A stretch of DNA of 64,000 nt, from the NCBI GenBank assembly GCA_002405805.1, contig DHMN01000028.1, positions 4,163 to 68,162 on the forward strand, written 5' to 3'. This document shows, in pieces, positions 13,911 through 56,117 of the stretch (its first letter is position 1; each line of letters starts with the position of its first letter). The translations under genes and the position numbers were made by a program. Source of the stretch: Cyanobacteria bacterium UBA4641. GTDB taxonomy: Bacteria; Cyanobacteriota; Vampirovibrionia; Gastranaerophilales; Gastranaerophilaceae. The notes beneath the pieces are model-generated. The model was given only the letters and a program-made list of their open reading frames with translations, was not told where the DNA came from and searched no databases.

Positions 13911-14145
13911 TGTCATGCTGAACTGACTAGAATATGAGTTGAGATGAAATCGAAACGTAATATTCTGTTCCTCCTCGGTGTTTCAGCATCTCAAATTGAA
14001 CAAATTAGTCTTATATATAATTTGCAAGGCTTGAGACCCTGAAACGAGTTCAGGGTGACATTATAAGCATTGATAGATTCTGAATAGCAAGAAAAATTTA
14101 TGCTCATTTTTCGCATAATATTTCTAAGCTTTCAGAATGACATAG
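13911..14145. repeat. Composite intergenic palindromic repeat cluster (GTCAnnCTGAA hairpin family)
   Basis: tgtcatgctgaac[56-nt insert]gtttcagcatctc; spacer ..aattagtcttat..; gagaccctgaaacgagttcagggtgaca; gattctgaa[tagcaagaaaa..tttctaagc]tttcagaatgacatag. Related copies at 25229, 32077, 33487, 43201, 49425 and 56023. Confidence 0.8.
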
Positions 14146-14166
14146 ACTACACAACATCTTTACCCT

Positions 14167-15159
14167 CTACCCAAACAAAATAGCCAAGCAGGTCAAGAGC
14201 ATGAACACTGTAGAAATATTTCGCGCAAAGAAAAACCTCAAATAAAACGGAGCATTAGTGGTATCTTTGACCTTGTTCCAGTTTTCAAGCGGCTTGTGCC
14301 AAAAGCGAACTTGAGGAACACTTGTTGGGTCTGTGTTGTATTTATTTAACATTGAATATAAATCAACAACGAGCGGAATTGTTAAATAATTGAGCAAAAA
14401 CAACCAATTATGCGTTCTAAAAATAAAATACCCAAGCACGACATAACTAAATCCGTAAAACACCAACAACAATTTAAGCGCTCTATCTTTTGAACCCATT
14501 TTTATACAAAGTGTCGTTTTATTTGCATTTAAGTCGCCATCATAATCCATAAGCATGTGAGCGTACAAAATCGCATTTACAAACATCACACAAACTAAAG
14601 ACAAGATAAAAACATCCAGCGAAAATTGCCTTGTCATCACATAATAAACACCCTCAAACATCAATGGTCCGTAAGCAATAATTATCTCGACTTCCCCAAG
14701 TCCGCGACAAGACAAATGCGGATAACCAAGTGCGATAACAAGCGCGATAACCGCCAGTAATAATACAACAGGACCTGAAATAAAAAACAAAACACCTCCA
14801 CAAAATGCAGCTATAGCTAAAAATATGATAATTGTATTTCGCAAATCTTTAATGGTAGCTTTGCCTGACCTTAGATATTCACACTTGCAGTCCCTGCCTG
14901 CCGTGATGAATTTATCATCCTTTTGTAAAACTTTGTAATCTATATAATCATCAATCAGATTTGTTGCAAGGTGAACAAAGCTAATTCCGACAAGTGCAAT
15001 TAAACCGTTTAATATTGCCCCACCTTGTTTTAGAGAATAGACAAAAATCACAAGCCAACTCAAAAAAGTTATCGGTGCAGAATATAACCTTGCGGCTTTT
15101 AGCCAAAAAATTGTCTTATCAATGAAATTTTTCAAAAATTTAATCATCTTATTTTTCAA
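14167..15159 (-). CDS. UbiA-family prenyltransferase (MenA-like)
   Basis: Polytopic membrane protein with 'NLIDDYIDYKV' (NxxxDxxxD) and a second Asp-rich 'DYDGD' motif. Confidence 0.7.
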   Translation of the reverse strand: MKNKMIKFLKNFIDKTIFWLKAARLYSAPITFLSWLVIFVYSLKQGGAILNGLIALVGISFVHLATNLIDDYIDYKVLQKDDKFITAGRDCKCEYLRSGKATIKDLRNTIIIFLAIAAFCGGVLFFISGPVVLLLAVIALVIALGYPHLSCRGLGEVEIIIAYGPLMFEGVYYVMTRQFSLDVFILSLVCVMFVNAILYAHMLMDYDGDLNANKTTLCIKMGSKDRALKLLLVFYGFSYVVLGYFIFRTHNWLFLLNYLTIPLVVDLYSMLNKYNTDPTSVPQVRFWHKPLENWNKVKDTTNAPFYLRFFFARNISTVFMLLTCLAILFG

Positions 15160-15373
15160 AAATATTTTTTAAAGCAATAACTGATTCGTAACTTGCGCCT
15201 GCCTCAAGAATTTCTTCCGCACTAAGCCCAAACATCGTAATCAAATCTCGAGCACTGTTGTTGTCGCGCTCATTTAGGTATTGAGCAACTTTAATAACCG
15301 CATCCCCTCTTGTCATTTTGGTGATTTGGTCATTTATTCCTTTCCTAAAAATTCTTGCCTTAGATTTTCCCAT
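15149..15373 (-). CDS. Hypothetical small protein (74 aa)
   Basis: ORF in an operon position between the ROK kinase and UbiA genes (11-nt overlap with the latter). No motif recognised. Confidence 0.4.
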   Translation of the reverse strand: MGKSKARIFRKGINDQITKMTRGDAVIKVAQYLNERDNNSARDLITMFGLSAEEILEAGASYESVIALKNIFEK

Positions 15374-15377
15374 CAGA

Positions 15378-16250
15378 CTACACCTTGCCTAACGCCAACA
15401 ACGCAGCACCAATCATGCCTGAATAGTTGCCTGCTGTAGCTTTTACAACTTTTGTCGGTGTTGTTACAATTTCTTTATTAACATTTTTTTCAACTTCATC
15501 AGTATCAACAAATTGAGCCATAGAACCTGACAAAACAAAGCAATCAGGGTCAAAGATGTTTGCAAGTCCGATAATTCCGTTTGTAATATCTTCCTGCCAA
15601 CGGTTCAGAACGGCTTTCATCTTTTCATCGCCTGCATTTACGCCATCTATTACATCATAAGTTGTTACATCTTTATTATTTAACATTTCTTCTGCAGTTT
15701 TTTTCAAGCCATGACCTGACGCGTAAGCCTCAAAGCAATCCCAAGAACCGCAAGTACAATGACGTCTTTTATCAGAATACATTTTGAAATGCATTTCACC
15801 TGCTGCACCGTTTTTCCCTTTAAACAATTTGTCATTTAGGATAATTCCGCCACCGACACCTGTTCCAAGCGTCAACATAATTGAATCAGGGCAACCTTTT
15901 GATGCTCCGATTTCATGTTCTGCCCAAGCTGCACAATTGGCATCATTTTCCACAAATACAGGCTTTTTTGATAAGGACAAAAAGTCCATTGTCGGATATT
16001 CTTTAGCTATATTTCCTGTTGAGCCTAAAATTCCTGTGTTTTGGTTATTCACAGCACCACAAGTTGAAAATGCAACGATATCAACATCATTTTCGTGTTT
16101 TTTGATTATTGATTTGAAAGTTTCTTGAATTTCATCAAAAGTGCTCGGTGTTGAATGTTTTTCGATTTCAGTTAAGAAATTTCCGTTTTCATCAATAATG
16201 GCACTGTAGATTTTTGTACCGCCAACATCTATAGCTAAAGCTTTTTTCAT
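15378..16250 (-). CDS. ROK family sugar kinase (NanK-like by context)
   Basis: 'LAIDVGGTKIYSAI', 'LGTGVGGGII' and the ROK zinc motif 'CTCGSWDCFEAYASG'. Co-directional with nanE. Confidence 0.8.
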   Translation of the reverse strand: MKKALAIDVGGTKIYSAIIDENGNFLTEIEKHSTPSTFDEIQETFKSIIKKHENDVDIVAFSTCGAVNNQNTGILGSTGNIAKEYPTMDFLSLSKKPVFVENDANCAAWAEHEIGASKGCPDSIMLTLGTGVGGGIILNDKLFKGKNGAAGEMHFKMYSDKRRHCTCGSWDCFEAYASGHGLKKTAEEMLNNKDVTTYDVIDGVNAGDEKMKAVLNRWQEDITNGIIGLANIFDPDCFVLSGSMAQFVDTDEVEKNVNKEIVTTPTKVVKATAGNYSGMIGAALLALGKV

Positions 16251-16474
16251 TATTTATTAACTCCTTTTTCAAAACTGTCTCGGATTCCATCCATTGCTTG
16301 CCTGCAAAATTTGTACATTGAGCGAACTTCGCGTACTGTATACTCTCTGCCGATTAGTTCAACTTTTCGGTCGTAATCAGGCAACTTCTTTTGTTTTTCA
16401 GCTTGTTCCATTACTGCCAGCAAATTCTTTGCTCTATCTAATGGAGACAAAAATTTTATTAATGGTATTTTCAT
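16250..16474 (-). CDS. Hypothetical small protein (74 aa)
   Basis: ORF wedged between nanE and the ROK kinase. Its stop overlaps the kinase start. No motif recognised. Confidence 0.4.
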   Translation of the reverse strand: MKIPLIKFLSPLDRAKNLLAVMEQAEKQKKLPDYDRKVELIGREYTVREVRSMYKFCRQAMDGIRDSFEKGVNK

Positions 16475-16477
16475 TAG

Positions 16478-17176: not shown

Positions 17177-17374
17177 ATTATATATTAAACAAAAATAAAT
17201 TTCTGTATGGATATCAAAATTTTATTTTTACGCAAGAGCTTTAGTTATTTTATAAAAGTTACCCTTGGAAATAATCATTGATATCTAACCCCATATTATG
17301 CTATAATTGTTCTATCATTGGCACTACAATATAAGAAATTGCCGACATACACGTATTTAGCGAGGAAAATATTA

Positions 17375-18706
17375 ATGAATAAAACTTTAGTGAAATATCC
17401 GTTTTTAACAAAAGAGGTAGAAATTTACGAAAGAGACAATGGACACAAGATTGTTTTGGCACATAAAGAAGGCGATATGGTCAATGTATCATCTTGGGTT
17501 AAAACAGGTTCAATAAATGAAGACGATGATAATAACGGTATTTCACACTTCCTTGAACATTTGATGTTCAAAGGTACAAACACCTACAAAGTTGGTGAAT
17601 TTGACAGAATGTTAGAATCAAAAGGCGCAATCGTCAATGCTGCAACTTGGAAAGATTATACTTTTTTCTATGTAACTTTACCAAAAGGTATTGATAACAA
17701 GGATTTTGATTTGGCTATTGATTTGCATGCCGATATGATGATGAATCCGATTTTTCCTGCAGAAGAACTCGGTGCTCCGTTTGATATCAACGACCACACA
17801 GTAACAGACAAACGCGAACGTCACGTCGTTATTGAAGAAATAAGAATGAGAAAAGACCAACCTTGGACAAAAGTTTACAATATTTGCAACAAAAATATGT
17901 ACACAAATCACCCATATAAACGTGATGTAATTGGTACTCCTGAAATTATTTCAAGATTAACAAGGGAAGATATTGACAACTATTATAGAAAATTCTACAC
18001 ACCGAAAAACGTCACAACTATTATCGTTGGTGATTTTGACCACGAACAGGTTTTGAAAACTCTTTGCGAAAAATTCGATTTCCCTAACCGTACACAAGGC
18101 GAAAATCGTGTCAATGCAATTGATTTGCCAGTATCTGAAACTAAATATGTAGAGACAAAAGCAAACGTAAATACATCTTACTTGATGTTTGGTTGGCTCG
18201 GACCTTTGGCAAGAGAATTAAAAGCATCTATTTGCCTTGATTTAATCAGCATAATTTTTGGTGATGGTTCTAGTTCTCGTTTGCAACAAAATTTAGTAGA
18301 AAAATTGCCTGACAAAATCTTCAATATGATTGACTCTGAGCATTATCAATTCAAAGATGGCAACAATTTCTTCATTCAGGCAAATTTCAGACCTGATGCG
18401 AAAGAAAAAGCAATTGAACTTGTTAAAGAAGAATTAGCAAAACTTTTGACAGAAAGAATCACAGAAGAAGAACTTGCGAAAGCTAAAAAACGTACAAAAT
18501 CGCGCTTTGCTTTTGCTGCAGAAACTGTATCTGAAATCGGCGAAACAATCGGTTATTATATGACAGTTTGCGATGATTTGAAGTTGATTGAAGACTATTT
18601 GAGCGATTTAGACAGTATTACTGTTGAGGATTTGGAAGAAACCATCCGCAAGTATTTGTCAATTGACAATGCTGTTATTTCTGTTCTGGTTCCTGAAGAG
18701 GCATAG
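17375..18706 (+). CDS. M16 family (insulinase/pitrilysin-like) zinc peptidase
   Basis: Inverted zinc motif 'HFLEHLMFKGT' (HxxEH) and downstream 'EE' region 'RHVVIEEIRM'. Start moved to the ATG at 17375 with SD gaggaaa; the tracked start at 17318 is TTG. Confidence 0.88.
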   Translation: MNKTLVKYPFLTKEVEIYERDNGHKIVLAHKEGDMVNVSSWVKTGSINEDDDNNGISHFLEHLMFKGTNTYKVGEFDRMLESKGAIVNAATWKDYTFFYVTLPKGIDNKDFDLAIDLHADMMMNPIFPAEELGAPFDINDHTVTDKRERHVVIEEIRMRKDQPWTKVYNICNKNMYTNHPYKRDVIGTPEIISRLTREDIDNYYRKFYTPKNVTTIIVGDFDHEQVLKTLCEKFDFPNRTQGENRVNAIDLPVSETKYVETKANVNTSYLMFGWLGPLARELKASICLDLISIIFGDGSSSRLQQNLVEKLPDKIFNMIDSEHYQFKDGNNFFIQANFRPDAKEKAIELVKEELAKLLTERITEEELAKAKKRTKSRFAFAAETVSEIGETIGYYMTVCDDLKLIEDYLSDLDSITVEDLEETIRKYLSIDNAVISVLVPEEA

Positions 18707-18709
18707 TTT

Positions 18710-19303
18710 ATGGCAACGGAATTTGATGAAAAACTGGAAGAAGTTAGACAAAAATGTTTGCACTGTGACAAATGTTCATTGTGCAAAACTCGGACAAATT
18801 CGGTATTTTCAGCAGGTGTTCCAAATTCTAAATTGATGTTCATCGGCGAAGCTCCAGGGTATTATGAAGATATGAAAGGAGAGCCTTTTGTCGGAAAAGC
18901 CGGACAACTTTTAGATAAAATCTTGGGTTGTGTCGGATTTTCAAGAAAGGAAAATATTTATATCTGCAACACCCTAAAATGCCGTCCACCTGAAAATAGA
19001 GACCCCCTACCGGAAGAAAAAGCTGCTTGTTGGGAGTATTTAAACGCGCAAGTTGAGACACTAAAACCGCGTATAATTTTGCTTTGCGGAAGAGTTGCGG
19101 TGCAATCTTTTATTGATACAAAACTTGGGATTACAAAACTTCGCGGAAAATGGTTTGAAGGTCCTAATTTTAGCAAAATGATGCCGATTTTTCACCCTTC
19201 GTATTTGTTGAGAAATGACAGTCGCGAAAAAGGTTCACCAAAATGGCTTATGTGGCAGGACATCAAAGAAGTTCGCAGAGTCTATGAACAAATGCAGGGG
19301 TAA
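18710..19303 (+). CDS. Uracil-DNA glycosylase, family 4 (Fe-S type)
   Basis: 'CLHCDKCSLC' cluster cysteines, 'GEAPGYYEDMKGEPFVGKAGQLLDKIL' (GEAPG..E...G.PFvG.AG.lL), 'HPSYLLR'. Confidence 0.9.
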   Translation: MATEFDEKLEEVRQKCLHCDKCSLCKTRTNSVFSAGVPNSKLMFIGEAPGYYEDMKGEPFVGKAGQLLDKILGCVGFSRKENIYICNTLKCRPPENRDPLPEEKAACWEYLNAQVETLKPRIILLCGRVAVQSFIDTKLGITKLRGKWFEGPNFSKMMPIFHPSYLLRNDSREKGSPKWLMWQDIKEVRRVYEQMQG

Positions 19304-19602
19304 TGGCGCGGAATAAGACTGCCATTCTGGCAGGAAATTTTGTCGGCTTGGCATAAATGAAGTGCCGACCTACTAAAACACATAGGTCTTTGTCATTTTA
19401 AGCATGCCATGCTTATTGAAAAATCCAATAAAATATTAATTATTAAGTTTTATTAAGATGAATTATCATGTAAAACGCACACTATACAAGGGTTTTAAAA
19501 ATTAGTATATATTTTATAGATAAAAAATAGCACTTTTTATATACTCAAATTTTTTATATATATGTAAGCAATGAGCGACTAGATTAGCAAAAAGGAGAAT
19601 AT

Positions 19603-19791
19603 ATGGCGAGAGTATTAATTTCAATGCCCGAAGAATTTTTGAACAGAATTGACCAAGTTGCAGATGGTGAAAATCGTTCCAGAAGTGAATTGATTCGTGA
19701 GGCATTAAGAACCTACATTTACAAACAAAAAATCAAAGAATCCACAGGCGCGTTGCAAAATGCTAATCTGTTGGAATCATTGTTGAGTTAA
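19603..19791 (+). CDS. Ribbon-helix-helix (CopG/MetJ-type) protein, solitary
   Basis: 'RVLISMPEEFLNRIDQVADGENRSRSELIREALRTYI' is a typical RHH fold pattern. Strong SD aaaggag. No adjacent toxin-like ORF. Confidence 0.6.
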   Translation: MARVLISMPEEFLNRIDQVADGENRSRSELIREALRTYIYKQKIKESTGALQNANLLESLLS

Positions 19792-19868
19792 TCAGCGGTA
19801 AGGAAAAAGGCGAAAAGATTTGGGATAAACATTGGCAGCCCTCTTTTGAGAGTTGCCTTTTGTTGTTA

Positions 19869-20618
19869 TTATTTCCAAGGGTAACTTTTATCAATGCGCC
19901 AACCTGCGCGTTTGATTTTTTCAGCACAACAGTCTCCATCACCAGATTTTGAACAGTTATTATTTATTTGCTCGTCCGTAAATGAAGAACATGCAGGCAC
20001 TACAACTCCGCCTTTTTCTCCGTCGATTTTTCTCTCTAAAAGGAATATGTCTCTACCAACAGTATTAGGTTTCGCAGTACCATTAATATCTACATAAATA
20101 GCACTTGAAGTAAAATATCCATTCTTAGTATCTCCGGTATATGTAACAATCATATATATAAAACCATCCATAGATGTGAACACCACGCGTGAAGCTCTAG
20201 TTTCAACAAGCAAGTTTAATTTACGACCATTAATATATTGCCATGGGCTTGAATTATCGTATCCGCATCCTGTGACATTACATAGAGATAAAACTTTTAT
20301 ATATGGAGCCCAGAATTTGTCAAAATAATTTTGTGCACCAAGTGCACGCGCTTCTTCTGCCGAAACTTCGCCGACATCATCGTACGCCAAGCGGTAAGCT
20401 TGATTCATCACAGAAATTGCCTTTTGTAGTTTGACTACCGTTTGTTTTTTCTGATGGGTTGCTATTAAATTAGGTATCGTAATCGCCGCAATTACACTTA
20501 TTATGCCTAGGGTGATTAACGTTTCTGCTAAAGTAAACCCAAGGTGCACCGAACTTAAAAAGCGCTGAGCACCATGAGTAAAAATACATTTTAAATTAGA
20601 CCATTTTTTGTTATACAT
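19869..20618 (-). CDS. Prepilin-type N-terminal cleavage/methylation domain protein (pilin-like paralog 1)
   Basis: 'G|FTLAETLITLGIISVIAAITIP' class-III signal, 'VDINGTAKPNTVGRDIF', C-terminal Cys pair 'CSKSGDGDCCAEKIKRAGWRIDKSYPW'. Start placed at the internal ATG (MYNKKW). Confidence 0.85.
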   Translation of the reverse strand: MYNKKWSNLKCIFTHGAQRFLSSVHLGFTLAETLITLGIISVIAAITIPNLIATHQKKQTVVKLQKAISVMNQAYRLAYDDVGEVSAEEARALGAQNYFDKFWAPYIKVLSLCNVTGCGYDNSSPWQYINGRKLNLLVETRASRVVFTSMDGFIYMIVTYTGDTKNGYFTSSAIYVDINGTAKPNTVGRDIFLLERKIDGEKGGVVVPACSSFTDEQINNNCSKSGDGDCCAEKIKRAGWRIDKSYPWK

Positions 20619-20742
20619 ATCAAACCTTTCTCTTATAGTTAGAATAAAATAAATTATAGTGTAAAACATAATAATTATAGTTAATTAGCTATAATATGTC
20701 AACATCCTTGAGTTTGGCAAAAAGAGAGATTAACATGAACGA

Positions 20743-20976: not shown

Positions 20977-20979
20977 TTT

Positions 20980-22524: not shown

Positions 22525-22528
22525 AGTC

Positions 22529-25065: not shown

Positions 25066-25228
25066 AACATAAATCCAATATTGTACTATCTACACTCGTT
25101 TATTTATCGTATTACGGACATAGTATAATTTCAACTTATATGTAACATTTGTAACAAACATAATACTTGTCCTAAGTGTTTATTTAGAGATACTGAAACA
25201 GCCTTGGATTATTAAACAAATAGGTCTA

Positions 25229-25338
25229 TGTCACCCTGAACTTGATTCAAGGTCTTTTCCATATTAATAATTCAGCAAATATTCTTATTGATAAATATTG
25301 ATTATTAAAAAGATTCCGAACCAAGTTCGGAATGACAG
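25229..25338. repeat. ~110-bp MITE-like repeat unit (type 1)
   Basis: tgtcaccctgaacttgattcaaggtcttttccat - AT-rich spacer - gattattaaaaagattccgaaccaagttcggaatgaca. Near-collinear with 32077-32186 and 33487-33655. Terminal inverted repeats TGTCAnnCTGAA/TTCnGnnTGACA. Confidence 0.75.
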
Positions 25339-26822: not shown

Positions 26823-27338
26823 TTAAGATAAACCTAAGGCTATTTTATTATTTGTAGAAATCATATTCATTGCGTTATACATACTAGATTGAGAGGCTTG
26901 TAGCGAATCATAACGGTCATCTAAATTTGTAAGTTGAGACAAATATGAAGATAGTTGAGATAAAACAGATGGATTACCCTCAGCATCTTCTAACATTTCT
27001 TCTAATTCATTACTGATTTGGTTCAAAATTTCACTAACATCATCGTCACTGGATACAGAAACTCCAACAGCTGACGCCAATGATTTTGCCTCTGATAAAA
27101 TTTCACTTTCTGATGAATTCTCTTGCCCATTGTTGCTTTGGTTTTGCGCTGCTTGCTGTTGTTGAGCTTGAGCAATTTTAGCTTGAGCCTCAGATTCTGT
27201 CATACCGGAAGTTTCAGATATCCCTAACGCCGCAAGTTTAGATTTTGTTTCATTACTTAATTTTGACTTTTTGGAGACACTTTCACTAGCTGCTGTACTT
27301 CCTGCATTTACTCCTGAGATTGTTGTTGTCATAAACAC
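26823..27338 (-). CDS. Hypothetical Ser/Gln/Glu-rich protein without signal peptide
   Basis: Low-complexity centre 'AQAKIAQAQQQQAAQNQSNNGQ'. C-terminal 'SSMYNAMNMISTNNKIALGLS'. Function unknown. Confidence 0.5.
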   Translation of the reverse strand: MFMTTTISGVNAGSTAASESVSKKSKLSNETKSKLAALGISETSGMTESEAQAKIAQAQQQQAAQNQSNNGQENSSESEILSEAKSLASAVGVSVSSDDDVSEILNQISNELEEMLEDAEGNPSVLSQLSSYLSQLTNLDDRYDSLQASQSSMYNAMNMISTNNKIALGLS

Positions 27339-27544
27339 GTCCTTTCATTTGTAAGTTTTTCTCTCTCTTAAAAACTTGATACTCACAAACTATCGGTTTT
27401 TATTTTTATGAACTTTAGAAAATTTGCTCAAATATGAAGAAAAATTTACATATAGAATTTTCTACTTATAGAAACGTTGACTTTTAGAATTTGGTTATTA
27501 AATTGAATAAATCACAAATTGTAAACACGAGAATTGAGGTATTT

Positions 27545-27997
27545 ATGGAGAAAACAGCTTACATCTACAGTACAGAATTTCAAATCAGTTCAACTGCAAA
27601 ACTGGTAACAAAACTTGCAGAAAAACGTTTTAATACAGAAATTAAAAACAATATTTCTTATGAAGAATATCAAATTTTAGACACTATAATGTGTTATCCG
27701 CATATAAATAGTACACTGCTTGCAAAAACGCTTTTTCAAGATGAAAATACGACAAAAAAGAATATCAACAAGCTTATAAAAAGAAATCTGATAAACGAAG
27801 TTAAAGAAAAGCATAATGAAATAAAAACTCATTTTTATGAAATCACACAAGATGGAGTGCGCATTTATAAAGATATCGCCTCTCAAAGTGATTCAATGAT
27901 TGTAACCTTGTTAAAATTTATATCTGAAAAAGAATTGATTTCATTTTTAAGAACATTGAAAAAAATCAGAAATATTTTAATATCACTTGAATACTAA
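27545..27997 (+). CDS. MarR-family transcriptional regulator
   Basis: Winged-helix pattern 'EEYQILDTIMCYPHINSTLLAKTLFQDENTTKKNINKLIKRNLI'. Start at the ATG with SD gagg; the tracked start at 27491 is TTG. Confidence 0.6.
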   Translation: MEKTAYIYSTEFQISSTAKLVTKLAEKRFNTEIKNNISYEEYQILDTIMCYPHINSTLLAKTLFQDENTTKKNINKLIKRNLINEVKEKHNEIKTHFYEITQDGVRIYKDIASQSDSMIVTLLKFISEKELISFLRTLKKIRNILISLEY

Positions 27998-28082
27998 AAA
28001 CTCCTTACTCATACATGCACACTAAAAAAGCCTGCAAGAAGAGAACTTGCAGACTTTTTCTTTTAACAAATAAAATTTCTTT

Positions 28083-31615: not shown

Positions 31616-31691
31616 GCGGAAGTAGCTCAGTTGGTAGAGCGTCTGCCTTCCAAGCAGGCTGTCGCGAGTTCGAGTCTCGTCTTCCGCTCCA
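31616..31691 (+). tRNA. tRNA-Gly (anticodon TCC), CCA encoded
   Basis: GCGGAAGTAGCTCAGTTGGTAGAGCGTCTGCCTTCCAAGCAGGCTGTCGCGAGTTCGAGTCTCGTCTTCCGCTCCA. Acceptor GCGGAAG/CTTCCGC, anticodon loop CTTCCAA. Confidence 0.92.
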
Positions 31692-31729
31692 TAGAGGGTC
31701 AATTCATTGGCTCTCTATTTTTTGTAAGC
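31673..31729 (+). repeat. Direct repeat copy 1 (tRNA-Gly 3' end plus downstream hairpin)
   Basis: agtctcgtcttccgctccatagagggtcaattcattggctctctattttttgtaagc. Repeated at 31846-31901 with one substitution and one 1-nt indel, by eye. Confidence 0.85.
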
Positions 31730-31845: not shown

Positions 31846-31901
31846 AGTCTCGTCTTCCGCTCCATAGAGGGTCAATTTATTGGCTCTCTATTTTTGTAAG
31901 C
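31846..31901 (+). repeat. Direct repeat copy 2 (orphan tRNA-Gly 3' fragment, att-like)
   Basis: agtctcgtcttccgctccatagagggtcaatttattggctctctatttttgtaagc. A third, shorter T-arm-like fragment gcgagttcgactctcgt lies at about 31930-31946. Confidence 0.85.
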
Positions 31902-32076
31902 AGAAGAGGCTGACGATAACTCGTTTTTGCGAGTTCGACTCTCGTTGCTATGATTCTTGGCGAAACTATGTTGAGCCTTAGAGGCATAGTACCTACTTGG
32001 CTTCCACTCCTTTACCTGAAATGTCAGCGTGGTAAAGACACCTACAAAAACAAAACACTAAGGGCGAGGAAAAAGG

Positions 32077-32286
32077 TGTCACCCTGAACTCGTTTCAGGG
32101 TCTTTTCCATTTAAGGATTCAACAATGCTTACTTTGACTAATAATGATTATTGAAAAGATTCTGAAATAAATTCAGAATGACATAGACTGATGTGTTTTA
32201 TTTGAGACTCTGAAACAAGTTAGCGTTCTTTTTGCTTAACTACGTTCACACGGAGCACTTGCCAGAATCCACACTTCAGCATGACA
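32077..32286. repeat. Palindromic repeat cluster (type-1 unit plus a split hairpin)
   Basis: 32077-32186 tgtcaccctgaactcgtttcagggtcttttccat..gattattgaaaagattctgaaataaattcagaatgacatag. 32204-32286 gagactctgaaacaagt[~53 nt]cttcagcatgaca. Confidence 0.75.
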
Positions 32287-32311: not shown

Positions 32312-33010
32312 TTACCATGGATAATCTTTTTCTATTTTCCATCCTGCGCGGCGGATTTTCTCTGCACAATAAAAACCATTTCCACTTTTATTACAATTTT
32401 TATCAATAACATCATTGCTATAAGTGTATCCAAGCGGTTGGATTCCGCCACCATCTTTAGCAACCCTTGTTAAGTAAAACACATCTCGACCAAAGATGTT
32501 TGGACCTTCTGCACCGTTTATATCCACAACGACAGAACCATCCTGCACGGTTTCTCCAGCGACAGAAGTTCCCATTGCAACAAATATGACATATAAAAAG
32601 CCATCAGAAGTGTAAAAAGTAGTCCTTCTTTCAGGAACTACGACACCCATATTCACAGCTGTTTTATTTGAATAAAACCAAGGATTACCAACTTTATATC
32701 CACATTGTTTGTAATTTGTACAAATAATCGCAGTCTTAATATAAGATGCCCAATACTGTTTAAAATATTCCTCAGAACCCATCTTGAAAGATTCGCTTTC
32801 AGATGGCTCGCCTACATCGTCATAAGAAAGCTTGTACGCTTGATTCAAGACAGAGATTGCTTTTTGTAGTTTTGTTACGGTTACATGTTTTTGGTAATTC
32901 GTAATCAAAACCGGTATTGTCATCGCTGCAACTATACCAATTATTCCTAGAGTGATTAAAACTTCTGCCAATGTAAAAGCATATTTTCTAACACAATATT
33001 TGTTTTTCAT
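32312..33010 (-). CDS. Prepilin-type N-terminal domain protein (pilin-like paralog 2)
   Basis: 'KYA|FTLAEVLITLGIIGIVAAMTIP', 'VDINGAEGPNIFGRDVF', 'CNKSGNGFYCAEKIRRAGWKIEKDYPW'. Closely similar to paralog 1. SD aaggag. Confidence 0.88.
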   Translation of the reverse strand: MKNKYCVRKYAFTLAEVLITLGIIGIVAAMTIPVLITNYQKHVTVTKLQKAISVLNQAYKLSYDDVGEPSESESFKMGSEEYFKQYWASYIKTAIICTNYKQCGYKVGNPWFYSNKTAVNMGVVVPERRTTFYTSDGFLYVIFVAMGTSVAGETVQDGSVVVDINGAEGPNIFGRDVFYLTRVAKDGGGIQPLGYTYSNDVIDKNCNKSGNGFYCAEKIRRAGWKIEKDYPW

Positions 33011-33360: not shown

Positions 33361-33702
33361 GCAAACGGAGTAACGGAGTATTCCACAACAAGACTTGCAG
33401 GGGATTACGACGTCGCGCTGTGAAGTCTATTATTTTATTTGTACAATATAGCTCCTCGTAATGACATGATGTTTTAAAAACTTAACTGTCATTCTGAACT
33501 TGATTCAGAATCTTTTCCATATTAATAATTTGGCAAATATAATTATTGATAAATCCTAATTATTTTTGCCAATCAACATTGATAGATTCTGAATAGCAAG
33601 AAAATTATGTGCTCGTAAACTCTCACAAATTTTCTAAGCTTTCAGAATGACATAGACCTATGTGTTTGGAGACCCTGAAACGAGTTCAGGGTCTCCAAAC
33701 AC
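33361..33702. repeat. Composite palindromic repeat cluster ending in an 18-bp-stem hairpin
   Basis: tccacaacaa..gggattacgacgtc module; 33487-33655 type-1 unit with the long-loop hairpin gattctgaa[tagcaagaaaa..ttttctaagc]tttcagaatgacatag; 33662-33702 gtgtttggagaccctgaa-acgag-ttcagggtctccaaacac (perfect). Confidence 0.8.
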
Positions 33703-33704
33703 AA

Positions 33705-43200: not shown

Positions 43201-43445
43201 TGTCATTCTGAACTTGTTTCAGAATCTCTAATAAAACATATTAGTCTTATGCAAAATTTGTACTATTAGAGACCCTGAAACTCCACAGTCGCATTAAACG
43301 TGACTCCACTTCGTTTCGCACTCTGCTCCTGCTGTTCAGGGTGACATTGACATGGTGTTCGGCTAAAATTCTTAATAGAATAAAAACTAAGCCAAACAAG
43401 TTGACTAGATTTTTAATCCTTTCAGAATGACATAGTTAAACATCG
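43201..43445. repeat. Composite palindromic repeat cluster (type-2 unit, split hairpin, terminal half-site)
   Basis: tgtcattctgaacttgtttcagaatctctaataaaacatattagtcttatgcaaaatttgtactattagagaccctgaaa[53-nt insert]gttcagggtgaca ... cctttcagaatgacatag. Confidence 0.8.
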
Positions 43446-47973: not shown

Positions 47974-47978
47974 TAAAA

Positions 47979-49405: not shown

Positions 49406-49424
49406 TATAAATAGATTTTATAAT

Positions 49425-49740
49425 GAAAGCTTAGAAAATTTGCGGTCGAAAAATCTCACGCAAATTTTCTTGCTATTTAAGGGGATTAAAATAAACAGGT
49501 CAGTATGTCCGCCCCTAGTGGGCGGACCGAAATCTCTGATTTCGAGGTGGGGGATTATGACATATTTGTTGTGGATTACCACGTCATTCCGTCAAGACTT
49601 GTGATAAAATTCAACTACGCCTCGCATTAAACGTGTCTCCGAGCCTGACAACATATCCTGCAGATAGCCAATCAAATTGGCAGGCTGCTCCGCACTCTGC
49701 TCGGCTTGGTTTTCCTCGTAATAACGTAAAAAGCTTGCCC
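49425..49740. repeat. Mosaic of repeat modules in a gene-free region
   Basis: Reverse-oriented copy of the tagcaagaaaa..tttctaagc module (gaaagcttagaaaatt..aattttcttgcta). Hairpin gtccgccc-ctagt-gggcggac. gggattatgac..ggattaccacgtcattcc. The tcgcattaaacgtgtctcc..cgcactctgctc module is shared with 43281-43333. Confidence 0.65.
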
Positions 49741-49886: not shown

Positions 49887-49910
49887 GGAACCCTAATCGG
49901 TTCCTTTTTT
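49887..49910 (+). terminator. Orphan plus-strand terminator
   Basis: ggaacc-ctaatc-ggttcc followed by tttttt. No convincing plus-strand CDS upstream. Confidence 0.5.
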
Positions 49911-49925
49911 ATTGACTAAAAAAGT

Positions 49926-49950
49926 GGGCGAAGGCTAAATGCCTTCGTCC
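49926..49950 (-). terminator. Terminator of the cupin gene
   Basis: Minus strand: ggacgaaggc-attta-gccttcgccc followed by acttttttag. Confidence 0.6.
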
Positions 49951-49975
49951 TTTCGTTATGACCAAACGAACTATA

Positions 49976-50281: not shown

Positions 50282-50354
50282 TAAAATTCCTCCTGTTTTG
50301 TTTCAAATTCATTAAAACAACTACAGAAGGAATTTTCATTCGACATTGTGGGGA

Positions 50355-50831: not shown

Positions 50832-50978
50832 AAATTCTCCTTTCATCATAGTATTATTTTAAATCCTGATAGTTACTCTCAGTCAAGTGTTGATTTTTAA
50901 TTGTTAAAATTATTAAATATTGGCAAAAATTTTTATTCACGGTTTTATTTATGATAAAATAACTGTGCAAAAAGGATA

Positions 50979-51776: not shown

Positions 51777-51851
51777 TCAAAATAAAACCCGACACCTGCA
51801 ATCAATGCAAGTGTCGAGCTTTTGGGTGATGAAGATTAAACTAAGTTCCGG

Positions 51852-53879
51852 TTATTCGTTACAACCGAATGCAATAGTAACGTGTTCCCTAGGATTTACT
51901 GCAGATATTTTATATCCGCGAGGGTCAACAAGGTAAGCAAATTCATCACCTGTAGTTTGGAACAAGCCCATAGTACCAGATAGAGCAGTTCTTGTTACGT
52001 CAATCGGTGCCTTAACGGTTTCAAACAAACCATCGCCCAAACTTCTTGCAGCAGCTCCGAATTGACCTTGGAAAGCGTGACCGAGCATATAACCTGCATC
52101 GTTAGATACGTTTTCTACAGCGTTACCAACGTTTGTGATGATACCGCCTGCAGTTCTACCGACAACACCAACCAAAGAACCTGCCCAAGTGAATGGCATT
52201 TCAACTACTCTTGCTACAGGGTTTACATTTTTAGATTTATTTACCTGAGCTTGCAAGATTTGTTTAGGTAATTTAGTTTTGCAATCACCGTTTTTGATTT
52301 CTGTGAAAGCAAGTTTCAATGCTCCTTTTTCACAGCCTGAAGGTCTGATTACTTCAACAACCTGACCTGTAACGGTTGAACCGCAAGGATAAGTTACGCC
52401 GTTGATAGTAATATCTTCAAGAGTGTTTGCTCTAAAGTATTGACCTACGTGAGAAGATTTTGCTGTCAATTGGTCAATCATTGAAAGTTTCAATGTTGGG
52501 ATTTTTACGATTTCTTCGTGTTCAATCAACGCATTTTTCTCTATCGGACAAGCAGGACAAATATTGTTTGCTGTTTTCGGATTTGTGTCATAACCAAGAG
52601 CTACACGAACAGTTTGCATCATTGATGCGATATCAGCACGAGATGCATCTTTGTTTGGCATAATCATGTTTGGTGTAGGTGAATCTTTCAATGCACCGTT
52701 TTGCAAAGATTTTGCTACAGGAATTCTTGCCCATTCAGGAACTTTGTTTCCGTCAGCATATTTGCTCAAGATTTCATTCGCTTTACATTTATCGATGTCA
52801 CAGTTCATACCTTTTGCAATTGATGTCAACGCTTCTACACGTGAAACATTTGCTTTTGGTTTGAATGTTTTGTTTGGATAACCTTTCAAAAGATTTTCGT
52901 CAACGGCTTTTGCAATTGCAACATTTGCCCAGTTGTTACGCGGAACATCTTTGAACATTGTTTGTCTATCCATATCACAATTCATGTTGAAACCTTTAAC
53001 AAGCATTGTTGCAAATTCAGCACGAGAGATGTTTCTGTTTGGCTTGAATAATCCATCAGGATAACCTACAACAACATCATTTGTTGCCAATTTGTCGATA
53101 TCACAAGCTGCCCAATGACTGTTAGGAACATCAGGGAACATACAACCGCCTAATGGAGCTGCTGCACCTGTGATATTTTGAATTTGTTGCGGAATTTCAT
53201 AAGGAATTAATGTCTTTTTAACCGCATTAATTGAATTTGCAGATTGAATGTCTATTGGACAAGCATTGCCATCCATTTTACGTTCGTTTCTGTCTATTGT
53301 TATACCATTATATTTGTTAGGCTCTTCGTTCAAGCATGGCATTTGAGCAGCCGCACCTGTAACTTGTCCGTCAGTTGCAACTGTTGCACCGCTGATGTTT
53401 GAAGACATTCTGCTTGCAGGACAGCCTTTCAATTGTTTTTCTGTTGAAAAGATTGAGTTTGCAGGTTCTCCGACATAGTTGTTTGTACCGTATACAGCTT
53501 GCGGATAGCCATAAACTTGTTTCATTTCAGCTTTGTCAGGTTTTCCTGTTTGCGGACACAATGCAGTTGATGGAACAGCTGGTTTGTCACAGCTTATTTC
53601 ATCAGGGCATCCGCAATCTTTCTTCTTGGCTGGACATGGGTCTTTTTTCTTGCAAGGTGCTTCTTGCTTTTTGCATCCACACTCAGGCAAAGCTTTTTTA
53701 CACTTTGTACAAGTTTGTGGTTGAGCTTGTTCCACAGGACATGCAGGACCTGTAACTACCGGTAATTGTTCGGCAGGTGCAGGTGTTTTGCATGGGCAAG
53801 CTGCCATTACTGGAGTCAAGGAACACGTTGCTATTCCAAGCGTAATAGCAGCTGCCAGAGTTAGTTTTTTAATTGACAT
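51852..53879 (-). CDS. SLH-domain envelope protein with an N-terminal Cys/Pro/Lys-rich region and a C-terminal beta plus glycine-rich module (module paralog C)
   Basis: Signal 'MSIKKLTLAAAITLGIATCSLTPVMA' (SD aaggagg). Three SLH repeats ('FPDVPNSHWAACDIDKLATNDVVVGYPDGLFKPNRNISRAEFATMLV', 'FKDVPRNNWANVAIAKAVDENLLKGYPNKTFKPKANVSRVEAL', 'YADGNKVPEWARIPVAKSLQNGAL'). C-terminal 'CGSTVTGQVVEVIRPSGCEKGALKLAFTEI' plus 'WAGSLVGVVGRTAGGIITNVGNAV'. Confidence 0.85.
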   Translation of the reverse strand: MSIKKLTLAAAITLGIATCSLTPVMAACPCKTPAPAEQLPVVTGPACPVEQAQPQTCTKCKKALPECGCKKQEAPCKKKDPCPAKKKDCGCPDEISCDKPAVPSTALCPQTGKPDKAEMKQVYGYPQAVYGTNNYVGEPANSIFSTEKQLKGCPASRMSSNISGATVATDGQVTGAAAQMPCLNEEPNKYNGITIDRNERKMDGNACPIDIQSANSINAVKKTLIPYEIPQQIQNITGAAAPLGGCMFPDVPNSHWAACDIDKLATNDVVVGYPDGLFKPNRNISRAEFATMLVKGFNMNCDMDRQTMFKDVPRNNWANVAIAKAVDENLLKGYPNKTFKPKANVSRVEALTSIAKGMNCDIDKCKANEILSKYADGNKVPEWARIPVAKSLQNGALKDSPTPNMIMPNKDASRADIASMMQTVRVALGYDTNPKTANNICPACPIEKNALIEHEEIVKIPTLKLSMIDQLTAKSSHVGQYFRANTLEDITINGVTYPCGSTVTGQVVEVIRPSGCEKGALKLAFTEIKNGDCKTKLPKQILQAQVNKSKNVNPVARVVEMPFTWAGSLVGVVGRTAGGIITNVGNAVENVSNDAGYMLGHAFQGQFGAAARSLGDGLFETVKAPIDVTRTALSGTMGLFQTTGDEFAYLVDPRGYKISAVNPREHVTIAFGCNE

Positions 53880-54136
53880 TTTTACCTCCTTGTTTGTGTG
53901 AGTTTTGTTTAAAATAAACAAAAGTTTTATTTAAAAAACAAACTTATACCAGATTATGTACTTTTCAGGAGGTTTAAAACATTAGCGAAAGTAACTATTC
54001 GACAGGCTAATATTTGAACTACTAATATTGTAACAATTTATTGCAAACACTTGCAATATAAGCAAAATTTTTGTATTCTATTTGTTTATATATATGTGTG
54101 TGAAGTTTCAAGCAGTTTACTGCGTGAAGGAGTGTT

Positions 54137-54283
54137 ATGTACAGCAAAGAATTTATGAAATTTTTGTTTGAATATCAAAAAGATGATTTTAAACCTAAAG
54201 AACCTGAATGTCGTGAAATTAGGTTTAAGAGTAACCGTGGTGGGAAATTAGCAGAAGTTTTCGTTACTGAAAAATGTGAATAA
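54137..54283 (+). CDS. Possible small ORF (48 aa)
   Basis: MYSKEFMKFLFEYQKDDFKPKEPECREIRFKSNRGGKLAEVFVTEKCE. ATG preceded by gaaggag. Below the ORF-track size cutoff. Confidence 0.35.
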   Translation: MYSKEFMKFLFEYQKDDFKPKEPECREIRFKSNRGGKLAEVFVTEKCE

Positions 54284-54318
54284 TTTACAGACTTTAAACC
54301 CCATTTTTAGTCGAAATT

Positions 54319-54537
54319 TTATAATGTAAAATTTAGCAAATCTATAATAGTGGTATCAAGAGCCTCGGAAATCCTAACCAAGGTTGAATATTTGGGGTCG
54401 ATTGTGCCACATTCTATACGACTGATAGTTCGCGTTGTCAGTCCGGTTTTTAGCGACAAATCAAGCTGAGAGAGATTTTGTTTATTTCTCAGGTATTTTA
54501 TTTTGTAACCAAGTTTTAGAAAATCTTCATTATTCAT
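54319..54537 (-). CDS. XRE-family HTH transcriptional regulator
   Basis: 'IKYLRNKQNLSQLDLSLKTGLTTRTISRIECGTIDPKYSTLVRISEALDTTIIDLL'. Confidence 0.85.
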   Translation of the reverse strand: MNNEDFLKLGYKIKYLRNKQNLSQLDLSLKTGLTTRTISRIECGTIDPKYSTLVRISEALDTTIIDLLNFTL

Positions 54538-54554
54538 TTTCTAATGATATATTA

Positions 54555-54583
54555 TTGACAAACTTAAAGCGATATATTATACT
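54555..54583 (+). promoter_or_regulatory. Sigma-70-like promoter for pilin-like paralog 4, flanked by a 10-bp direct repeat
   Basis: ttgaca, 17 nt, tatact. gatatattat occurs at 54546-54555 and 54571-54580, overlapping the -35 flank and the -10. Confidence 0.5.
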
Positions 54584-54625
54584 TCTATTATTAGACATAA
54601 AGTATATAAATAAGTAGAGAAGATA

Positions 54626-55429
54626 ATGAGAATAATCAAATTTGTTGGTAAAAATTTACGTTGCGCATCTGTAAAAAATAAATCTCGCTTTGATTTTTCA
54701 CCAGTCTTCACAAGATTTGGTTTTACGTTGGCTGAGGTTTTAATCACTCTTGGAATAATCGGCATAGTTGCCGCAATGACAATTCCTGTATTGATTTCCA
54801 GCCATCAAAAACGAGAGATTGAAGCTAAATTAAAAGAGGATTTTTCTATTTTTAGCCAAGTTAATAAAATGATGATTTATAATGATGTTTCATTTGACTT
54901 TTCTGCAGCAGATGGTAGTTCGCAAGTTTTGAGAAATTGGCTCAATCTCAATATTTTCCCATATATGAAAGTTGCAAGAATTTGCAATGAACCTGAAAAA
55001 GGTTGCTTTAGTTCTGTTAATATGGCAATCAGACAGCTTAATGGCAGTTCTTTTGATGATTGTCCAAAAGGTGGCGGAGGCTGTGGCGGCGGTTGGGTTT
55101 CATTTGTTATGAACAATGGAACAAAAGTTGCGGTTGATGTTGGAAATAACAGCCAATTGAGAACTATTTATGGAGTAGATTCAGATGCTGAAACTTGTTT
55201 AAAAATGTATGTTGACGTAAACGGAGACAAAAAGCCAAACAAATTCGGAATTGACATATTTTTGATGACCTTTACGGAAGATGGTTTTGTTCCTGCAGGA
55301 TATTCAAAAACCGCAGATGAACTCAAAAGCAATTGTTCCCCAAAGCAAACAGGTTGGTGGTGTATGGCTAGAGTAAAAAATTCGAACTGGGAAATTCCTG
55401 ATGATGTTTGGGCAGTAAGGAACAAATAA
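54626..55429 (+). CDS. Prepilin-type N-terminal domain protein (pilin-like paralog 4)
   Basis: Long leader, then 'RFG|FTLAEVLITLGIIGIVAAMTIP'. 'VDVNGDKKPNKFGIDIF'. Gly/Cys patch 'CPKGGGGCGGGW'. C-terminal 'CSPKQTGWWCMARVKNSNWEIPDDVW'. Confidence 0.85.
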   Translation: MRIIKFVGKNLRCASVKNKSRFDFSPVFTRFGFTLAEVLITLGIIGIVAAMTIPVLISSHQKREIEAKLKEDFSIFSQVNKMMIYNDVSFDFSAADGSSQVLRNWLNLNIFPYMKVARICNEPEKGCFSSVNMAIRQLNGSSFDDCPKGGGGCGGGWVSFVMNNGTKVAVDVGNNSQLRTIYGVDSDAETCLKMYVDVNGDKKPNKFGIDIFLMTFTEDGFVPAGYSKTADELKSNCSPKQTGWWCMARVKNSNWEIPDDVWAVRNK

Positions 55430-55434
55430 TGACC

Positions 55435-55920
55435 TTATATTCTGTCTTTTGTCAAGGTGTCAAGCGCGAGTTTCAGTGCTTGATTTGCAAATTGTTCTTT
55501 CATTTCCTTGCGTGGCAATTTCGGAGAAAGTTTAACTTCCTTGATTGTGGTGATTCCTTTATATCTGATTGAAATATAGACTAAACCAACAGGTTTTTCT
55601 TTTGTTCCGCCGGTAGGTCCTGCAATACCTGTTGTACATAACGCGATATCACAGCCTGTTGAGCTTTCCAAACCTTCTGCCATCGCTTGAGCACACTGTT
55701 CGCTAACTGCGCCAAAATTATCTAAAATATCCCAACTAACACCTAAAATCTTATGTTTAGCCTCATTTGCATAAGTTACAAAATTCAATTTGACATACTC
55801 AGAGCTGCCTGAAACATCTGTCAATTTTGAGCTTAGCAAGCCACCTGTACAAGACTCAGCCGTTGCGATTGTCAATTTGTTTTCGATTAAGTATTTTCCT
55901 AATTCTTCTTCTAAAGACAT
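55435..55920 (-). CDS. pncC: CinA C-terminal-domain protein (nicotinamide-nucleotide amidohydrolase PncC-like)
   Basis: 'LTIATAESCTGGLLSSKLTDVSGSS', 'GAVSEQCAQAMA', 'ALCTTGIAGPTGGT..KPVGLVYI'. Start at the ATG with SD aaggag. Confidence 0.8.
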   Translation of the reverse strand: MSLEEELGKYLIENKLTIATAESCTGGLLSSKLTDVSGSSEYVKLNFVTYANEAKHKILGVSWDILDNFGAVSEQCAQAMAEGLESSTGCDIALCTTGIAGPTGGTKEKPVGLVYISIRYKGITTIKEVKLSPKLPRKEMKEQFANQALKLALDTLTKDRI

Positions 55921-56022
55921 TTTTGGGCACTCCTTTTTAGTTGAATTTCCACCAAACAGAATATCACAAAAGTCTCTCCAAGGCATTAAACATAGGGGGG
56001 CTGACGCAACATATCAAGTCAT

Positions 56023-56117
56023 TGTCACCCTGAACTCGTTTCAGGGTCTCTAATTTTACAAACTTCACATAAGACTAATATGTTTTATTGAAGATGCTGA
56101 AACAAGTTCAGCATGAC
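56023..56117. repeat. ~95-bp MITE-like repeat unit (type 2)
   Basis: tgtcaccctgaactcgtttcagggtctctaattttacaaacttcacataagactaatatgttttattgaagatgctgaaacaagttcagcatgac. The spacer is the reverse complement of the spacer at 43228-43268 and is related to 13993-14032. Confidence 0.8.

Follow-up and report, generated by a model that had tools for sequence, protein, structure and literature searches.

GTC-tagged CTGAA hairpins in a gut Gastranaerophilales genome, a likely gene-less expansion of Ssn-type REP repeats

To which class of element do the nested palindromic repeats belong that lie scattered between the genes of Cyanobacteria bacterium UBA4641 (Gastranaerophilales), and what might have spread them? 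The question arises from a stretch of 64 kb on contig DHMN01000028.1 (this whole stretch is called the window here), in which eight repeat loci between positions 13911 and 56117 were each read from sequence. A preliminary description had likened them to repetitive extragenic palindromes (REP) and bacterial interspersed mosaic elements (BIME) or to miniature inverted-repeat transposable elements (MITE). Our analysis confirmed that the repeats are real and far above chance, and we consider it likely that they represent a lineage-specific expansion of REP hairpins with a (C/T)GTC tag, of the type linked to the GIY-YIG nuclease Ssn, in the form of gene-less, non-autonomous dimers.

The short unit consists of TGTC, A(C/T)NCTGAA, a 5-nt loop, TTCAGN(G/A)T and CT, and the window contains ten such short hairpins as well as about six long-loop variants. 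A search for GTCANNCTGAANNNNNTTCAGNNTCT with up to two mismatches gave 11 matches against 0.00 expected from 100 dinucleotide shuffles, and the core CTGAA-N(2-10)-TTCAG was found 9 times against 0.97 expected. By a strict count there are 9 hairpins per 64 kb, where shuffles give 0.2. Folded as single-stranded DNA (ssDNA), the elements reach z values of -3.8 to -10.7 against shuffled controls.

When the ten short units (9 of them distinct) are aligned, G2, A5, T25-C26-T27 and the CTGAA/TTCAG core do not vary, and the tag positions T3 and C4 are retained in no fewer than 90% of the units. The tag, TGTC and once AGTC, stands 5' of the stem in nine of the ten units, the GTC tag likewise being present in 9/10, and C26, immediately 3' of the stem, in all ten. 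In the 8-bp helix 98.6% of the cells are paired, with compensatory changes at three of the eight stem pairs (2, 3 and 5); the observed covariation score was reached by none of 500 shuffles and no slid register came near it, which bears out the earlier impression that the variable stem positions co-vary. Pair 1 is A-U in all nine distinct units, pair 2 is U-A in five and C-G in four. The loop measures 5 nt in the ten short units and 46–59 nt in the about six further ones. The 3' tail is CT(T/C), of which the first C alone agrees with the CCA consensus of the CGTC/TGTC-tagged REPs.

The hairpin had been written as GTCAnnCTGAA...TTCAGnnTGAC, and the hairpin itself holds, but not its symmetric end: the single unit is asymmetric (GTCA...TCT), and the TGAC end belongs to the partner hairpin on the opposite strand. 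The search pattern GTCANNCTGAA..TTCAGNNTGAC that had been proposed for it finds no match in the window because the single hairpin ends in TCT. Repeats are indeed present at all eight loci that had been listed, with the reservation that 19381 is a remnant and 49425 is related in part only.

Is this hairpin private to the genome? Species-representative genomes were scanned with one exact 17-base pattern, and the hairpin was matched in at least 120 stretches from more than 12 phyla; the family is thus pan-bacterial and not private to this genome. Among the matches listed are Bacteroidota, Spirochaetota, Gastranaerophilales, Elusimicrobiota, several groups of the candidate phyla radiation (CPR), Alpha- and Gammaproteobacteria, Nitrospirota, Campylobacterota and others, including one metagenome-assembled genome of Nanoarchaeota; the source genome of the window is not in this list. 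In the at least 120 stretches listed, the two free stem positions are complementary in 151 of 161 hairpins, chance being 1/16. Only four stem variants (TG/CA, TC/GA, CC/GG and TT/AA) and few loops (CTTGT, TTTAT, CTTGA and CTCGT) dominate among the matches listed; three of these four variants occur in the window, where several of the 26-mers have identical copies. Between taxa, neither flanks nor spacers show conservation, and it is therefore the tagged hairpin that is conserved. CTGAA hairpins are often accompanied by others of the same grammar, e.g. GTCATTCCCGCGAAGGCGGGAATCC in a Rickettsia endosymbiont. A literature search by hairpin sequence strings returned primer matches only.

What, then, is the partner of the hairpin? 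Clustering of the open reading frames (ORFs) at the at least 120 hairpin loci revealed a GIY-YIG cluster, with proteins of 90–109 aa, in five loci, and in four of the five a CTGAA-type hairpin directly adjoins the gene, on both sides in L098 and L100. No transposase was found among the shared ORF clusters of these loci. The largest other shared clusters are common families that do not look element-specific; three of them we take, from their sequence, to be TPR, ABC transporter and GMP synthase. All eight GIY-YIG ORFs that were tested exceeded the cut-off of PF01541.

SsnA of Neisseria is a 94-aa single-domain GIY-YIG protein that binds the Neisseria hairpin NTS as ssDNA only and cleaves a few nucleotides upstream of it; cleavage depends on the three bases 5' of the palindrome and binding on the C immediately 3' of it; hairpins called SRM lie near 71% of ssn homologues, NTS-ssnA-NTS resembles an insertion sequence, and the meningococcal SsnA system restricts transforming DNA (Chenal et al. 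2025, Nat Commun 16:2388; PMC11893778). With an alignment of the hairpin-flanked GIY-YIG proteins, 80 ssn-like metagenome loci were fetched, and a GTC-tagged hairpin with an 8-bp stem at most 250 bp from the gene was counted as near. Such a hairpin was present in 43 of the 80 loci, in 30 of them on both sides, and hairpin density fell from 3.16 per kb near the gene to 0.21 per kb beyond, a 15-fold difference. The commonest stems near the genes were ATGCTGAA (16), ACCCTGAA (14), ATCCTGAA (11), ATTCCGAA (7) and ATTCTGAA (5), and four of these five are window variants. One of the loci, L150, contains the canonical Neisseria NTS, which ties the protein set to the published Ssn family.

The arrangement around the ssn-like genes also resembles that in the window. 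Hairpins with their tags outward are preferred (33 against 20 upstream, 38 against 20 downstream), and 22 of the 24 tags-outward pairs that flank ssn are heterodimers, with pairings including ACCCTGAA with ATTCTGAA, ATTCCGAA or ATGCTGAA, which are pairings of the window dimers. Contigs of gut Gastranaerophilales relatives contain hairpin-ssn-hairpin units with GTCACCCTGAACTTGATTCAGGGTCT; in the gut contigs L220 and L222 this hairpin is followed by ~24 nt, ssn and AGACCCTGAATCAAGTTCAGGGTGAC, with the end of the ORF inside the right hairpin. The TCT-ATCAATGYTGA inner flank of several window hairpins recurs beside ssn-flanking hairpins in L189; L220 and L222 have a more diverged version of it there. 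Because the window dimers show the same orientation and hairpin pairings as the hairpin-ssn-hairpin units, with a spacer of 45–60 nt replacing the gene, they look, as far as can be judged from sequence, like non-autonomous derivatives of such units, similar to REPINs (REP doublets forming hairpins) or NIMEs (neisserial intergenic mosaic elements).

Some further observations concern these genes. In L220 (2453-2831), L222 and other loci the repeat encodes the C-terminal residues of Ssn (e.g. ..IDPESSSG*) together with the TGA stop; by a strict test the ssn ORF runs into the downstream hairpin in 5 of the 80 loci. The hairpin-ssn-hairpin unit of L220 is nested within an outer 15-nt inverted repeat, and the idea that such nesting is general was given up, as it is clear in L220 only. 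The ssn contig L189/L215, which comes from the same sample as the window and has a tetranucleotide correlation of 0.983, equal to within-window values, was considered as part of the window's organism and rejected: it belongs to a different genus, since the MnmE of the contig with the same phosphoglycerate kinase (PGK) shares only 69% identity with the window's. The PGK of the contig with that MnmE is ~97% identical to those of Candidatus Stercorousia faecigallinarum and 'Fusobacterium sp. CAG:439'.

In the window, units pair with their tags outward to form six dimers, all of them intergenic, of ~95–110 bp with spacers of 45–60 nt; the TGTCA...TGACA termini reported before are present on these ~100-bp dimers. 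The proposed division into two types with distinct spacers was confirmed by repeat and BLAST analysis. In detail, type 1 consists of a hairpin, TCTTTTCCAT, the spacer, TTGAAAAGA and a hairpin (25229-25336, 32077-32183 and 33487-33652), and type 2 of a hairpin, CTCTAAT..AACATATTAGTCTTATG.. and a hairpin (13911-14060 and 43201-43346; in inverted sense at 56023-56117). The junction motif, TGACATAGAC(C/T)(T/G)ATGTGTTT, is real as well and marks the point at which the right end of type 1 is fused to half a type 2 element; the resulting three-hairpin composite recurs at 32077-32286 and 33487-33703 and, reversed, at 25170-25336. The elements are as follows (M49, M50, M57, LL1 and LL2 being loop inserts):

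13911-13991, plus strand: long-loop hairpin TGTCATGCTGAAC, M57 (13924-13979), GTTTCAGCATCT; left arm of type 2, with a perfect 8-bp outer stem
14034-14060, minus strand: short hairpin AGACCCTGAAACGAGTTCAGGGTGACA with CC/GG stem; right arm of the type 2 dimer 13911-14060
14075-14142, minus strand: long-loop hairpin AGATTCTGAA, 46 nt (LL1), TTCAGAATGACA, inner flank cattgat; from repeat analysis and fold
19376-19420, plus strand: remnant with junction motif, TGTCA tag and an unrelated small palindrome
25170-25228, minus strand: degenerate type 2 half, joined to type 1 via the junction motif
25229-25336, plus strand: type 1 dimer, TGTCACCCTGAACTTGATTCAAGGTCT, spacer, AGATTCCGAACCAAGTTCGGAATGACA; fold z -4.2
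32077-32183, plus strand: type 1 dimer, CC hairpin, spacer, TT hairpin; fold z -5.7, weak full-length WsnRNA46 match
32184-32286, minus strand: half type 2 spacer and long-loop hairpin AGACTCTGAAACAAGTT, M50 (~50 nt), TTCAGCATGACA; hairpin at 32205-32286
33402-33466, minus strand: GTCA-tagged long-loop unit whose stem differs (TGTCATTACGAGGAGC...GTCGTAATCC)
33487-33652, plus strand: type 1 dimer, the right hairpin of which (33584-33652) carries the LL1 loop module
33653-33703, no strand assigned: junction and perfect palindrome with 19-bp stem, TGTGTTTGGAGACCCTGAA/ACGAG/TTCAGGGTCTCCAAACACA (33661-33703); fold z -10.7
43201-43346, plus strand: type 2 dimer, left TT hairpin 43201-43227, right CC hairpin 43270-43346 with M49
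43366-43432, minus strand: degenerate long-loop hairpin with LL2 module, ending in TTCAGAATGACA
49415-49486, plus strand: degenerate LL1-type long hairpin in reverse orientation; from repeat analysis
49622-49703, plus strand: M49-like module (TCGCATTAAACGTG...CGCACTCTGCTC) with a further internal insert of ~50 nt
56023-56117, plus strand: inverted-sense type 2, CC hairpin 56023-56049, spacer, TG hairpin 56092-56117; in the radA-cinA spacer

The region 49415-49740 is only partly related to the others, consisting of a degenerate long-loop unit and a motif in common with the loop insert at 43286. In agreement with the preliminary description, according to which the repeats are always intergenic and often lie at gene 3' ends, all eight loci lie outside genes; the neighbouring genes converge at five of them and run in tandem at three, and no locus has divergent neighbours. 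The flanking genes are ordinary chromosomal ones (glyQ, mnmE, radA, cinA, an ABC permease and a UbiA-family gene).

Are these repeats still on the move? For comparison with strains and species we used contigs with an identical GlyQ or with a RadA 89–98% identical; L125-L128 are the closest strains at the DNA level (~96% identical to the window), and L003 is 99.2% identical to the window across 3.8 kb. Such a comparison of orthologous sites had been suggested beforehand, and it revealed that elements are present or absent between strains, polymorphism being found among strains ~96–100% identical at the DNA level, and that they are absent in sister species. The radA-cinA spacer, ~240 bp with its type 2 element in the window, measures 25 bp in L237 and 9 bp in L233-L235, whereas L236 and L238 contain a different hairpin-derived insert between the same outer flanks; L237 and L236 have the same RadA protein, yet the spacer of L237 is only 25 bp long. 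The spacer between mnmE and the EF-hand gene measures 293 bp in the window but 2 bp in L230, and the one upstream of glyQ is 302, 325 or 436 bp among strains with identical GlyQ, an extra long-loop hairpin module being present there in L126-L128. Where the window has the remnant at 19376, L125-L128 have a ~470-bp cluster of 4–5 hairpins. Strict hairpins number 4–6 per 21 kb in L125-L128 and 0–1 per 21 kb in the relatives with RadA 89–98% identical; the expansion is a recent, lineage-specific bloom. In L003, 20 extra bases at 33665 give a longer, imperfect palindrome in place of the perfect 19-bp stem of the window (33661-33703), and the latter reads as the signature of a quasi-palindrome correction by template switching.

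The loops take part in this turnover. Long-loop units, with loops of 46–59 nt, lie at 13911-13991, 14075-14142, 32205-32286, 33584-33652 and 43270-43346, and in degenerate form at 43366-43432; save for the latter, their outer stems are perfect. The inserts are repeated modules that always sit between two half-stems. M57 (56 nt) lies inside a TG/CA hairpin in the window; a 98% identical copy lies inside the CC/GG hairpin of L125, L127 and L128 that is the orthologue of the insert-free window hairpin 32077-32103, and M57 is found at a third locus in L127. M49 (~50 nt, 43286-43335) and LL2 recur at non-orthologous loci. The junctions of the modules are not clean cut-and-paste; the modules may have inserted into loops, or hairpin halves may have recombined around them.

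How might such repeats spread? An unpaired GTC tag is followed in each unit by an 8-bp stem with A-T as first pair and a loop of 5 nt, and the base next to the stem on the 3' side is C; TGTCACCCTGAACTCGTTTCAGGGTCT would, as ssDNA, be a candidate substrate of a cognate Ssn that the host presumably encodes. Ssn would bind the ssDNA hairpin and, to go by the biochemistry in Neisseria, cut a few nucleotides upstream. Spread and reshuffling may proceed via ssDNA intermediates, by action of Ssn or of host repair, with hairpins extruded at forks or during DNA uptake. Downstream of genes the dimers accumulate, and they merge into mosaics; hairpin loops gain or lose ~50-nt modules, and palindrome-perfecting template switches remodel the elements. 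Side roles as terminators or as recombination substrates are conceivable.

Several points weigh against deriving the repeats from an Ssn-type system. There is no GIY-YIG gene within the 64-kb window, and the only ssn contig from the shared sample (L189/L215) belongs to another genus. No copy is flanked by a target-site duplication (direct repeats), and we found no empty site that was clean and of unit size. The cut that Ssn makes upstream of the tag is not enough to account for the loop inserts. We know of no demonstration that Ssn transposes anything, its role in Neisseria being the restriction of transforming ssDNA. Finally, the published SRM string HGTCWYN(0-2)YYVSBRHN(0-5)WNVSBRGN(0-2)RNCYNB has no match in the window, because the AT-rich CTGAA stem violates its V/S positions; the window repeats are an AT-rich CTGAA subfamily of the CGTC/SRM hairpins that this string misses.

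Which other explanations have to be considered? Classical REP/REPIN elements, mobilized by a REP-associated tyrosine transposase (RAYT, an IS200-like Y1 transposase) encoded elsewhere in the genome, would share the architecture of tagged hairpins, inverted dimers, mosaics, intergenic location and strain-variable copy number. However, the tag is (C/T)GTC and not GTAG, and CGTC repeats have no dedicated transposase and were never found flanking Y1 transposase genes (PMC3733652). The earlier statement that the window lacks a RAYT/IS200 transposase holds, but the expectation of a RAYT as partner does not, as neither the window nor the shared ORF clusters of the at least 120 hairpin loci include a Y1 transposase and it is a GIY-YIG cluster that associates with the hairpins there; we regard this explanation as very unlikely. 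Still more remote is a descent, as ordinary MITEs, from an insertion sequence that has a DDE transposase and TGTCA terminal inverted repeats, although the dimers are ~100 bp long and end in TGTCA...TGACA: no target-site duplication is visible at any copy, no parent insertion sequence was found in the window or the related loci, the spacers are lineage-specific, and conservation resides in a self-complementary 26-nt hairpin instead of a linear terminal repeat. Of the initial comparison, REP/BIME-like therefore describes the repeats well (tagged hairpins, inverted dimers, mosaics, intergenic and strain-variable), whereas a classical MITE, with a target-site duplication and a parent insertion sequence, does not.

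Two further explanations, each of which we judge improbable, concern function. The repeats might be mainly RNA-level elements, conserved as bidirectional terminators, stabilizers of 3' untranslated regions (3'-UTR) or genes of WsnRNA46-like small RNAs (sRNAs), which would fit the five convergent and zero divergent loci, the two type 1 arms flagged as terminator-like (a stem followed by CTTTT) and the alignment of type 1 (32058-32201) over the full RF02625 model. This alignment scores 24.7 bits, far below the gathering score of 65.3, and in the window no Rfam family except tRNA reaches its threshold, other matches being the weak WsnRNA46 one and spurious miRNA ones; terminator-like sites are not enriched (15, with 11.0 ± 3.5 expected), and a T-run is missing from most units. 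Nor would a purely structural terminator need identical 26-mers across phyla and an invariant unpaired tag, and sister strains dispense with the elements at orthologous sites. Terminator or 3'-UTR effects of type 1 arms are plausible as by-products. To a similarly small degree we credit the idea that the repeats are immobile recombination or integration sites that flank exchangeable cassettes, as dRS3/NIME arrays do in Neisseria, and serve homologous recombination, a site-specific recombinase or an IS110/Piv-type enzyme. Indeed, the clusters 32077-32286 and 33402-33703 bracket a cassette of HTH and prepilin-like (DUF6613/N_methyl) genes that is absent in L128, where both clusters are contiguous, and both the 54626-55429 cassette and the radA-cinA insert are missing in L237. 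Most loci (13911, 25229, 43201 and 49415), however, adjoin housekeeping genes and not cassettes, no recombinase is present in the window, and identical hairpins across phyla as well as their clustering at ssn genes would be left unexplained. Cassette bracketing may be a consequence of hairpin spread rather than its cause, and is then compatible with the Ssn-type derivation that we prefer. A bolder version of that derivation, which we hold to be rather doubtful, would see in the hairpin-ssn-hairpin units GIY-YIG-driven single-strand transposons and hence a new class of bacterial transposase, with the window dimers as their MITEs, M57, M49 and LL1/LL2 as second-tier parasites of extruded hairpin loops, and the arrays driving exchange of prepilin-like surface-protein cassettes in gut Melainabacteria.

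The surroundings of the repeats deserve a short description. The window has a GC content of ~35% and contains housekeeping genes together with SLH, NERD and Fic genes and pairs of prepilin-like DUF6613/N_methyl and HTH genes. In composition its best match outside the lineage is a Gastranaerophilales metagenome-assembled genome, and from the sequence alone the host is most probably an uncultured gut member of this order (Melainabacteria). A 27-nt inverted repeat (96%; 17249-17275 and 19868-19894) flanks an M16 peptidase-UDG-RHH segment (17276-19867, possibly to ~20547), which is inverted relative to glyQ in L125-L128 and L131 compared with the window, L129 and L130; in L125-L128 and L131 two inverted DUF6613/prepilin-like paralogues lie at the ends of this segment. 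It is thus an inversion polymorphism and possibly a switching system of the pilin type. Three paralogous cassettes of an HTH_3 regulator (~77 aa) and a DUF6613/N-methyl prepilin-like gene (19869-20669, 32312-33010 and 54626-55429) vary highly between strains in length (205–287 aa), indels and presence, one being missing at 31688-33683 in L128 and one at 54331-55435 in L237; two of the three lie between hairpin clusters. The 3' end of tRNA-Gly(TCC) with a terminator-like hairpin is duplicated 173 bp downstream with 98% identity (31616-31691, 31673-31722 and 31846-31895), which resembles an att scar left when an element integrated or was excised, and L126 has a phage-integrase gene in the corresponding region.

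A segment of ~1.25 kb (26823-28072, with ORFs 26823-27338 and 27491-27997) is present in the window, L129, L132 and L134 and missing in L125-L128, and constitutes a strain-variable insertion without hairpins at its edges. The region from ~58700 to 64000, which runs off the end of the window, has a strong AT skew and no listed ORFs; it represents the orthologue of a protein that in L236-L238 has 2402 aa and a weak HD-domain match. A Fic/DOC gene (10730-11500) adjoins a NERD nuclease-related gene (11510-12211) beside tRNA-Arg, and this pair may be a small defence or toxin island. Upstream of radA, L235 (8013-9954) carries a DarT-Macro pair (DarTG toxin-antitoxin or defence) that is absent in L233 and L234.

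A widespread, unannotated hairpin, with identical 26-mers from Bacteroidota to CPR and Melainabacteria, can now be placed in the Ssn/SRM framework of 2025, whose published search string passes over a major subfamily rich in AT. Entire clusters, individual dimers and loop modules, besides one quasi-palindrome correction, occur as natural filled and empty sites in the window and its sister strains, and these are raw material for the question, standing since 2013, of how CGTC-type REPs spread. In addition, the hairpin loci explain breaks in the intergenic DNA, and hence in the assemblies, of gut Gastranaerophilales.

How do the repeats compare with known systems? The superfamily of CGTC-tagged REPs, of which Neisseria dRS3 and Rickettsia RPE-4/RPE-6 are members, is characterized by an unpaired CGTC, often TGTC, tag, stems of 8–9 bp starting with A-T, loops of 4–5 nt and a 3-nt tail; its dimers, frequently heterodimers, are mostly head-to-head, and it was recorded from five phyla, in the spacers of tandem or convergent genes (Di Nocera, De Gregorio & Rocco 2013, BMC Genomics 14:522; PMC3733652). 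The window units share the (C/T)GTC tag, the 8-bp A-T-first stem, the mostly inverted heterodimers, the tandem or convergent spacers and the lack of a Y1 transposase, but differ in their AT-rich CTGAA/TTCAG stem core. The ten short units have a 5-nt loop and many further units have loop modules of 46–59 nt; the short unpaired tail is CT(T/C) instead of CCA. The host, a Melainabacteria-like gut lineage, lies outside the five phyla recorded in 2013.

With NTS/SRM the window units have in common the GTC 5' of the palindrome (9/10) and the C 3' of it (10/10), the determinants of Ssn cutting and binding (PMC11893778). Window-type stems likewise flank single-domain GIY-YIG genes of ~90–110 aa in many metagenome contigs, in a hairpin-gene-hairpin layout that resembles an insertion sequence; the window itself, in contrast, has no ssn gene, its units being gene-less dimers with conserved spacers.

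The REP/BIME and REPIN-RAYT systems of gamma-proteobacteria share with the window tagged hairpins, inverted dimers that seem to be what replicates, mosaic clusters and strain-variable copy number, but in REPIN-RAYT the tag is GTAG and the partner a Y1 HUH transposase, whereas the window-type tag is GTC and the partner type a GIY-YIG nuclease. REPINs are mostly inherited vertically; window-type hairpins, unlike them, are identical across phyla. As in the Neisseria NIMEs (RS units bounded by dRS3), hairpins bound a few spacer types of 50–150 bp and arrays adjoin variable genes, including surface-protein genes, although the hairpin and spacer sequences differ and the link to cassettes in the window rests on two or three loci. 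Finally, the consensus of RF02625 (WsnRNA46) is, as in type 1, a tags-outward dimer of GTCA-tagged hairpins of ~110 nt, and to judge by this likeness what the Rfam model captures is probably a REP/SRM dimer and not a gene dedicated to an sRNA.

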